This document shows, piece after piece, positions 38,555-38,582 of a stretch of DNA of 43,500 nucleotides (position 1 is its first letter; each line of letters opens with the position of its first letter). The DNA is from Escherichia coli (GTDB lineage Bacteria > Pseudomonadota > Gammaproteobacteria > Enterobacterales > Enterobacteriaceae), in assembly GCF_003334255.1 (NCBI RefSeq), contig NZ_QOWU01000047.1. One strand, given 5' to 3'. Both the position numbers and the translations under genes were made by a program. The notes under the pieces were generated by a model. That model saw nothing but the letters and a program-made list of their open reading frames with translations, was not told the origin of the DNA and ran no database searches.

Positions 38555-38582
38555 TTATGCAATCAGACAGCATATTGCATAA
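38555..38582. promoter_or_regulatory. 9-bp inverted repeat in the ybgI/dtpD divergent promoter region
   Basis: ttatgcaat (38555-38563) and attgcataa (38574-38582) are exact reverse complements separated by 10 bp. Confidence 0.3.

Follow-up and report, generated by a model that had tools for sequence, protein, structure and literature searches.

The 270 bp between the divergently transcribed genes ybgI (37661-38404, minus strand) and dtpD (38675-40156, plus strand) of Escherichia coli contain a perfect inverted repeat, which raises the question of whether this repeat is an operator and, if so, for which of the two genes and for which regulator. The original prediction placed the repeat correctly in this region and described it as two 9-bp arms, ttatgcaat at 38555-38563 and attgcataa at 38574-38582, that are separated by a 10-bp spacer and form a candidate operator with no regulator named. 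All positions given here are those of the window, i.e., the whole stretch of 43,500 nucleotides that was analyzed, which is similar to E. coli K-12 DNA. The reported arms and spacer are exact, and perfect pairing runs outward past the 9 bp to give arms of 12 bp, the left arm TATTTATGCAAT at 38552-38563 and the right arm ATTGCATAAATA at 38574-38585, neither of which is assigned to a strand.

Position of the inverted repeat at the dtpD promoter

The 12-bp-arm repeat between ybgI and dtpD is not a chance feature but lies far beyond chance. In shuffles of the intergenic region alone, arms of at least 9 bp were found in 78 of 3000 and arms of at least 12 bp in 2 of 3000, while the whole window contains three perfect repeats with arms of at least 12 bp and spacers of at most 20 bp, compared with a mean of 0.1 in 60 dinucleotide-preserving shuffles. 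The 270 bp are found at 95% identity or more over most of their length in 5421 of 5426 complete E. coli genomes. Similarly, the 44 nucleotides from 38547 to 38590 are identical in 5241 of 5423 complete E. coli genomes and differ by one mismatch in the other 182, the mismatch being T38580C in the one genome examined out of these 182. No further copy of the dyad was found in the window or in the 81 other loci scanned. Further perfect inverted repeats with 11-12-bp arms are found at 709-742 (ACACGACCAGAA/TTCTGGTCGTGT), 22644-22682 (CTTTAAAAACTG/CAGTTTTTAAAG) and 35208-35241 (AAGGCAAACCA/TGGTTTGCCTT), and they look like terminator or REP-type hairpins.

A single transcription start is reported for dtpD, at position 741892 of NC_000913.2 with a 5' UTR of 113 nt (TSS table of Kim et al., 2012; PMC3415461). 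The dtpD promoter string in that table ends with ...TGTATATTTATGCAA, so that +1 corresponds to position 38562 on the plus strand of the window. Based on the distance from this mapped start, the -10 hexamer is TATATT (38550-38555, plus strand), upstream of which no -35 element is recognisable. The repeat thus extends from -10 to +24 relative to the dtpD start, with the discriminator, the start site and part of the -10 hexamer inside its left arm (-10 to +2) and the right arm (+13 to +24) in the early transcribed region. The start of ybgI in the same table is at 38433 on the minus strand, with the -10 element TATGTT at 38440-38445 and the -35 element TCGACG at 38463-38468. Because the ybgI start is 129 bp away from that of dtpD, the repeat is in an operator position for dtpD and not for ybgI. 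Thus, of the divergent promoter region to which the repeat had been assigned, only the dtpD side holds.

Several other features accompany the two promoters. The ybgI promoter includes the block TTCGTCGATAGC (38460-38472), which is about 99% conserved in 53 Enterobacteriaceae; this conservation exceeds the usual need of a -35 element, and a further site may therefore sit there. In the 5' UTR of dtpD are a perfect IHF consensus, TATCAAAGTTTTA (38596-38608), and the C/A-rich stretch AACACAAGCAC (38618-38629), C/A-rich stretches like this one being the kind of target that GcvB-type sRNAs have in the mRNAs of amino-acid and peptide transporters. Also in the 5' UTR, CAGATCTGTATCAA (38588-38601) is centred at +32.5 of dtpD, is conserved in Escherichia, Citrobacter and Salmonella, includes a GATC and agrees with the FNR consensus TTGAT-N4-ATCAA at 8/10 positions and with that of CRP at 7/10. 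The ybgH gene of Shigella shows anaerobic, FNR-dependent induction (PMC4229854), and no downstream promoter that would match the FNR-like CAGATCTGTATCAA was found. The mRNA of dtpD (b0709) falls about 4-fold under paraquat (about 3.2 vs. about 5 log-TPM), independently of oxyR, soxR and soxS, and is also lower on glutamine as the nitrogen source (PRECISE, PMC6892915 supplement). These values come from the first 49 sample columns, which include no arginine condition.

ARG-box-like palindromes, their spacing and their conservation

Both arms of the repeat are parts of longer palindromes that resemble ARG boxes. A symmetrised weight matrix was derived from 22 boxes in the promoters of carAB, argF, argI, argA, argD, argG, argR, argECBH, artJ, artP and hisJ of E. 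coli K-12 (MG1655), and 43,483 positions of the window were scored with it. These 11 training promoters are ArgR-controlled, and every one of them contains a pair of 18-bp boxes with a gap of 2-3 bp. The two top scores in the window are those of box A, AATGTATATTTATGCAAT (38546-38563), with 19.9 bits, and box C, ATTGCATAAATAATCAGA (38574-38591), with 18.1 bits, and the third is 13.4 bits; known strong ARG boxes score 17-22 bits when left out of the training one at a time. Boxes A and C, to which no strand is assigned, both have the features of the ARG-box consensus WNTGAATWWWWATTCANW, an 18-bp imperfect palindrome, and each agrees with it at 14/16 consensus positions. The inverted repeat is made up of positions 7-18 of box A and positions 1-12 of box C, and it arises because ARG boxes are palindromic, so that the right part of A mirrors the left part of C; a repeat of this kind results when two palindromic boxes of one subtype, TGCAT, are neighbours. 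A second box 3 bp from A, the canonical gap, would fall on position B, ACAGCATATTGCATAAAT (38567-38584, no strand), whose score in E. coli is -5.4 bits; the fit is limited to the left half ACAGCATATT, with about 7.5 bits over ten positions, and this half is conserved in nearly all species. The format of an ArgR operator is two 18-bp boxes 2-3 bp apart that usually overlap promoters (PMC4381063), and the boxes at dtpD, which occupy -16 to +30 relative to the start, likewise overlap or adjoin the core promoter.

The specificity of the matrix was assessed with other DNA. Among 113.5 kb of other K-12 DNA, every match of 16 bits or more belongs to a training promoter or to the held-out aroP and gltB/yhcC regions, both of which are named in the ArgR ChIP-exo paper (PMC4381063). 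The boxes of the held-out regions are at an offset of 21 in both cases and score 19.1 and 18.5 bits in aroP and 10.1 and 16.6 bits in gltB/yhcC. In 507 kb of other enterobacterial DNA, there are 5 matches of at least 14 bits. Since the training boxes were chosen with the consensus, the matrix is not fully independent of it, a concern that is lessened by the held-out aroP and gltB. No ARG box of 13 bits or more is present anywhere in the 10-kb locus of dtpC, which lies 58 bp downstream of cadA, and an ARG box is also absent from the promoters of the dtpB paralogues and from the dtpD-like promoters of Hafnia and Edwardsiella.

Weaker matches to the matrix are found elsewhere. The third- and fourth-best matches in the window are GCAGCATAAAAATGCAAT inside ybgI (37767-37784, 13.4 bits) and TATGAATAAACACGCATC over the dtpD start codon (38674-38691, 13.3 bits), which are also close to the site and may be coincidental. 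An ARG-like double box, TCTCAATTTTTAAACATA AAA TGCGAATTATTTAGTACA (43216-43254), scores 11.1 and 6.8 bits with a 3-bp spacer and lies about 80-115 bp upstream of a minus-strand ORF (42378-43139), in an area where a pseudogene of an ISAs1-family (ybfD-like) transposase is annotated in the K-12 record. Upstream of pyrL-pyrBI of K-12, ATCAAATAAAAATGCATA (positions 8992-9009 of the locus scanned) scores 14.4 bits; among the first ten K-12 loci (72.5 kb), no other match of at least 14 bits falls outside the promoters known to be under ArgR control.

Boxes A and C are not spaced like those of the reference operators. They are separated by a gap of 10 bp, or 28 bp from start to start, whereas 13 of 13 reference E. 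coli operators have a gap of 2-3 bp; the canonical two-box spacing (2-3 bp, 39 bp in total) is therefore not that of the strong boxes at E. coli dtpD. Pairs with canonical spacing at dtpD score 14.5 bits (A and B) and 13 bits (the pair that ends in C), compared with 19-39 bits for known operators, while A and C together would total 38 bits.

For comparison across the Enterobacteriaceae, a scan of one genome per species found dtpD next to a divergent ybgI at 52 loci. The core TGTATATTTATGCA (38548-38561) is invariant in 52 of 53 Enterobacteriaceae, with one change in Yokenella. This 14-mer resembles the ARG-box core TGAAT-WWWW-ATTCA, and G(T/C)ATATT comes again 21 bp downstream. Both TGTATATTTATGCA and ACAGCATAT are near-invariant across the 53 species and the flanks of both vary; the half-box AGCATATT, like box A, is near-invariant in the 53 Enterobacteriaceae, and A(C)AGCATAT(T) at 38567-38576 is 80-99% conserved in the intergenic alignment. 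Upstream of 38546, the sequence varies even between Escherichia clades. Averaged over 13 representatives with the repeat, conservation is 0.63 upstream of box A, 0.96 in box A, 0.89 in the spacer, 0.86 in the right arm, 0.72 in the rest of box C, 0.70 in the next 20 nt and 0.55 in the stretch 38612-38635. Since box A and the -10 hexamer overlap, promoter function accounts for part of the conservation of this box. The spacer is as constrained as the arms (0.89 vs. 0.86), which fits overlapping boxes and would not be predicted by a plain two-arm dyad.

The right arm is retained at 8-12 of its 12 positions, and at a fixed distance of 10 bp, in most members of eight groups (Escherichia, Citrobacter, Salmonella, Intestinirhabdus, Superficieibacter, a UBA5654 genome, Pseudocitrobacter and Kluyvera), and has decayed to 7/12 in S. 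enterica subsp. arizonae. It is missing in Klebsiella/Raoultella, a Pluralibacter-like clade and Yokenella, which on the ybgI and dtpD tree are at least three separate losses. In most of the genomes without the repeat, position 38562 has changed too, from TGCAA to TGCAC or TGCAT. The left arm never varies and the right arm drifts, and compensatory changes in the arms were never seen among the substitutions compared across genomes. The original prediction named conservation as one check and absence from close relatives as one outcome that would count against it. The repeat turns out to be kept in many genera and to be under selection; among close relatives, most members of Escherichia, Citrobacter and Salmonella keep it, while the three lineages above have lost it.

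Most of the genomes without the repeat (those of Klebsiella/Raoultella and the Pluralibacter-like clade) possess box A and, exactly at offset 21, a second box with +4.3 to +8.4 bits; Yokenella (-7.5 bits) and a single Raoultella genome (+1.6 bits) are exceptions. Scores of this size have a background probability of 0.002 per position in the same intergenic regions, and they match those of the weak second boxes of artJ, artP, argR and hisJ. Relative to E. coli, Klebsiella has an apparent 4-nt deletion, GCATATT[GCAT]AAATAATCAG. In most lineages, box A has an ARG-type partner at offset 21 or 28; the exceptions, with a weak partner or none, are Kluyvera, Yokenella, Intestinirhabdus and S. arizonae. 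The recurrence of a partner at one or the other offset is the strongest comparative argument that ArgR may be the selective agent.

We tentatively suggest that the dtpD site could represent a second, non-canonical architecture of ArgR operators, although we regard this as a minority possibility. The centres of the two full-strength boxes would be 28 bp apart, a phase difference of about 240 degrees, and the conserved half-box would bridge them; no indel would have disturbed this arrangement in Escherichia, Citrobacter, Pseudocitrobacter, Superficieibacter and others, and it would have been swapped via short indels for the canonical 21 bp in Klebsiella-like lineages. If this is true, the 28-bp architecture would imply a distinct binding mode of the hexamer, with either a third pair of DNA-binding domains or two hexamers, and would couple arginine status to the uptake of basic dipeptides. 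The 10-bp spacing, which is kept across genera and replaced by the canonical one in others, would then offer a natural experiment in DNA recognition by the ArgR hexamer.

Alternative explanations of the repeat

The repeat could also lack any dedicated dyad function. The left arm would then be simply the core promoter (-10, discriminator and +1), and the right arm would be conserved for another reason, for example as initial-transcribed sequence or because it includes a 5'-UTR element or a second -10-like CATATT; the two arms would have become perfectly symmetric once, e.g., by a template-switch mutation, and have stayed so. This would agree with the coincidence of the left arm with the -10 hexamer and the start site, with an invariant left arm next to a right arm that drifts uncompensated and with the first ~65 nt of the 5' UTR, which are wholly conserved in Escherichia and Citrobacter beyond the arm. 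It is nevertheless unlikely, as complementarity at 12/12 positions is far beyond chance and the right arm is recognisable even in genera whose downstream UTR is unalignable. It also leaves unexplained why both arms are inside the top-scoring ARG boxes and why a canonical second box was gained in most lineages without the repeat. Far less probable is that the repeat acts as a nucleic-acid hairpin, be it an RNA stem-loop or terminator or a DNA cruciform. Single-stranded DNA of the repeat does fold into a 12-bp stem of -8.9 kcal/mol (z = -3.6 vs. shuffles), but the dtpD mRNA cannot form this hairpin because its start is inside the left arm, of which two bases are transcribed. In addition, a T-run follows on neither strand, the terminator scan is empty at the repeat, all Rfam families are below threshold and substitutions in the arms are never compensated.

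Another reading is that the 12-bp dyad is the operator of a different dimeric repressor, with the arms as its half-sites, for which CytR is the best named candidate. The CytR half-sites are TGCAA/TTGCA (octamer GTTGCATT), and a gap of 10-13 bp between the octamers, about one helical turn, is tolerated (PMC3454398). The arms hold TGCAA-N12-TTGCA in the CytR orientation; the octamer ATTGCATA on both arms agrees with CytR at 6/8 positions, and its 10-bp gap is within the CytR range. Moreover, natural G/A variation in the right arm falls on the R of GTTRCATT for CytR, and position 38562 (TGCAA to TGCAC/T) and the right arm have been lost together in at least three lineages. However, all known CytR promoters have at least one CRP site (PMC3454398), and a credible flanking CRP site is absent from dtpD, where the best matches (7/10) are centred at the unsuitable distances of -32.5 and +32.5 and the upstream one is not conserved. 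Nor is dtpD (b0709) raised on cytidine, with 4.4 log-TPM vs. 4.9-5.3 on NH4 and 5.4-5.6 on cytosine in one dataset (PRECISE) in which glucose was present. The FNR dependence of ybgH in Shigella is unlike that of the CytR regulon there; a strongly conserved spacer is not predicted by a CytR dyad of flexible spacing, and a regulon of such dyads finds no second copy in the window or the 81 loci. In the open literature searched, no paper treats dtpD/ybgH and CytR together, except an unrelated GalR paper. CytR, which was a serious lead, lost ground because of the lack of a usable CRP site, the conserved spacer and the lack of a rise on cytidine, and a repressor of this type is now quite unlikely. 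That the repeat is the Cra (FruR) operator behind the published binding and repression of dtpD by Cra is very improbable. A gel shift of a dtpD promoter fragment by Cra has been published, along with an entry of dtpD among the Cra-repressed genes (PMC8085971), but the sole intergenic Cra-like motif (GCTGAAGCG..., 10/14, with at most 4 mismatches allowed) is upstream of the repeat, and the repeat itself bears no resemblance to GCTGAANCGNTTCA. The best Cra-like motif, GCTGAAGCGTGATG (38531-38544, minus strand), adjoins the repeat at -31 to -18 of dtpD, occurs in E. coli proper and is not conserved in other Escherichia clades; it is this half-site that probably accounts for the published Cra gel shift.

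Other candidates were rejected. For LexA, a CTGT-N8-ACAG box is absent, and even the best match in the repeat deviates at 2 of the 8 specified bases. A dtpD clone has been published with a "LexA" label, which carries no weight because it is a BPROM prediction with a mitomycin test in DH5alpha, which is recA1. The GalR site listed as "dtpD 741888" (NC_000913.3 coordinates; PMC5110547) maps into the dtpD coding sequence and not to the repeat; it is a weak in-silico site, GTGGCAACGCCTGCAC, at about 39337-39352. A sigma-54 promoter was dismissed by eye, since the -24 GG is absent, and a mirrored promoter on the minus strand was dismissed because its hexamer reads ATTATT, without an A at position 2. 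Consensus scans inside the repeat for CRP, FNR, Lrp, DnaA, ArcA, NsrR, PurR, Nac, IHF and Fis gave nothing convincing.

Predicted control of dtpD by ArgR and comparison with known operators

The reading that we prefer is that ArgR binds the dtpD promoter site, which is predicted to be an operator for arginine-dependent repression of dtpD. We give this reading a probability of about 0.6. The repeat would then probably be an ordinary ArgR operator with an unusual box spacing. The proposal of a candidate operator is borne out insofar as the repeat spans -10 to +24 of a mapped dtpD promoter and is under selection. The regulator that was left unnamed is probably ArgR, given that both arms are inside sequences that score like the strongest ARG boxes, and the unit of recognition is probably not the inverted repeat itself but the junction of two palindromic boxes.

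How ArgR may act at this site can be proposed from the positions of the boxes. Box A (38546-38563) would cover the -10 hexamer and the start site of dtpD, while the stretch from +6 to +30 would fall to the half-box (38567-38576) and box C (38574-38591). Under ample arginine, hexameric ArgR with bound arginine would occupy the region between -16 and +30, so that RNA polymerase could not form the open complex or could not escape from it, and dtpD would be repressed. Either a single hexamer might sit on box A and the half-box and additionally touch box C, or the site might accommodate two hexamers, each on its own face of the helix. Direct exclusion of RNA polymerase is the usual mechanism of ArgR (PMC4381063). 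Repression of dtpD would shut off an "atypical" permease of the POT class. An acidic substrate pocket characterizes the atypical POT pair that DtpC and DtpD form, in which DtpC, a close paralogue of DtpD, favours positively charged peptides (PMC9309889). The physiology of ArgR control of dtpD is thus plausible. ArgR represses the basic amino-acid uptake systems artJ, artPIQM and hisJQMP. As for these systems, an ArgR operator on dtpD would stop import, here of basic dipeptides, when arginine is abundant, and it would add a deeply conserved member to the arginine regulon.

In the open-access literature searched, a link between ArgR and dtpD/ybgH is absent beyond a BPROM list, no paper treats ybgI and dtpD together and no transcription-factor site is described on dtpD except for the Cra gel shift. 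The iModulon supplement files examined never name dtpD, and accordingly no iModulon membership was seen there. If the dtpD site is already in ArgR ChIP tables, the new part would be its architecture and evolution only.

The dtpD site can be compared with the operators of both regulators considered above. With the CytR operators of deoP2, udp, cdd, nupG, tsx and cytR, it shares the inverted TGCAA...TTGCA and a spacing close to one helical turn, which SELEX showed to be permitted (PMC3454398). Unlike those operators, it has no flanking CRP sites and is located at +7 instead of between -40 and -95, and dtpD, unlike CytR-controlled genes, is without a cytidine response.

The comparison with the E. 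coli ArgR operators of argF/argI, carAB P2, argECBH, argD, argG, argR, artJ, artP, hisJ, aroP and gltB reveals more in common. The boxes at dtpD and those of these operators are 18-bp AT-rich palindromes of the TGAAT/TGCAT-N4-ATTCA/ATGCA type. For instance, the artP box ATTGCATAATTATTCTGT and the artJ box ATTGCATATAAATTCACT are close in sequence to box C of dtpD (ATTGCATAAATAATCAGA), and the argD box AGTGATTTTTTATGCATA is similar to box A. Also shared are the overlap with the -10 hexamer and the start site, a target in amino-acid or peptide uptake and conservation throughout the Enterobacteriaceae. The difference is in the spacing: the strong boxes of dtpD are 10 bp apart and a half-box alone is at the canonical position, whereas the boxes of the E. 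coli ArgR operators are 2-3 bp apart. The cer site of ColE1 has single or widely spaced ARG boxes, and the boxes of the AhrC operator at argC of B. subtilis are reportedly about 11 bp apart. These two sites would be precedents for binding by ArgR-family proteins outside the 18+3+18 format.
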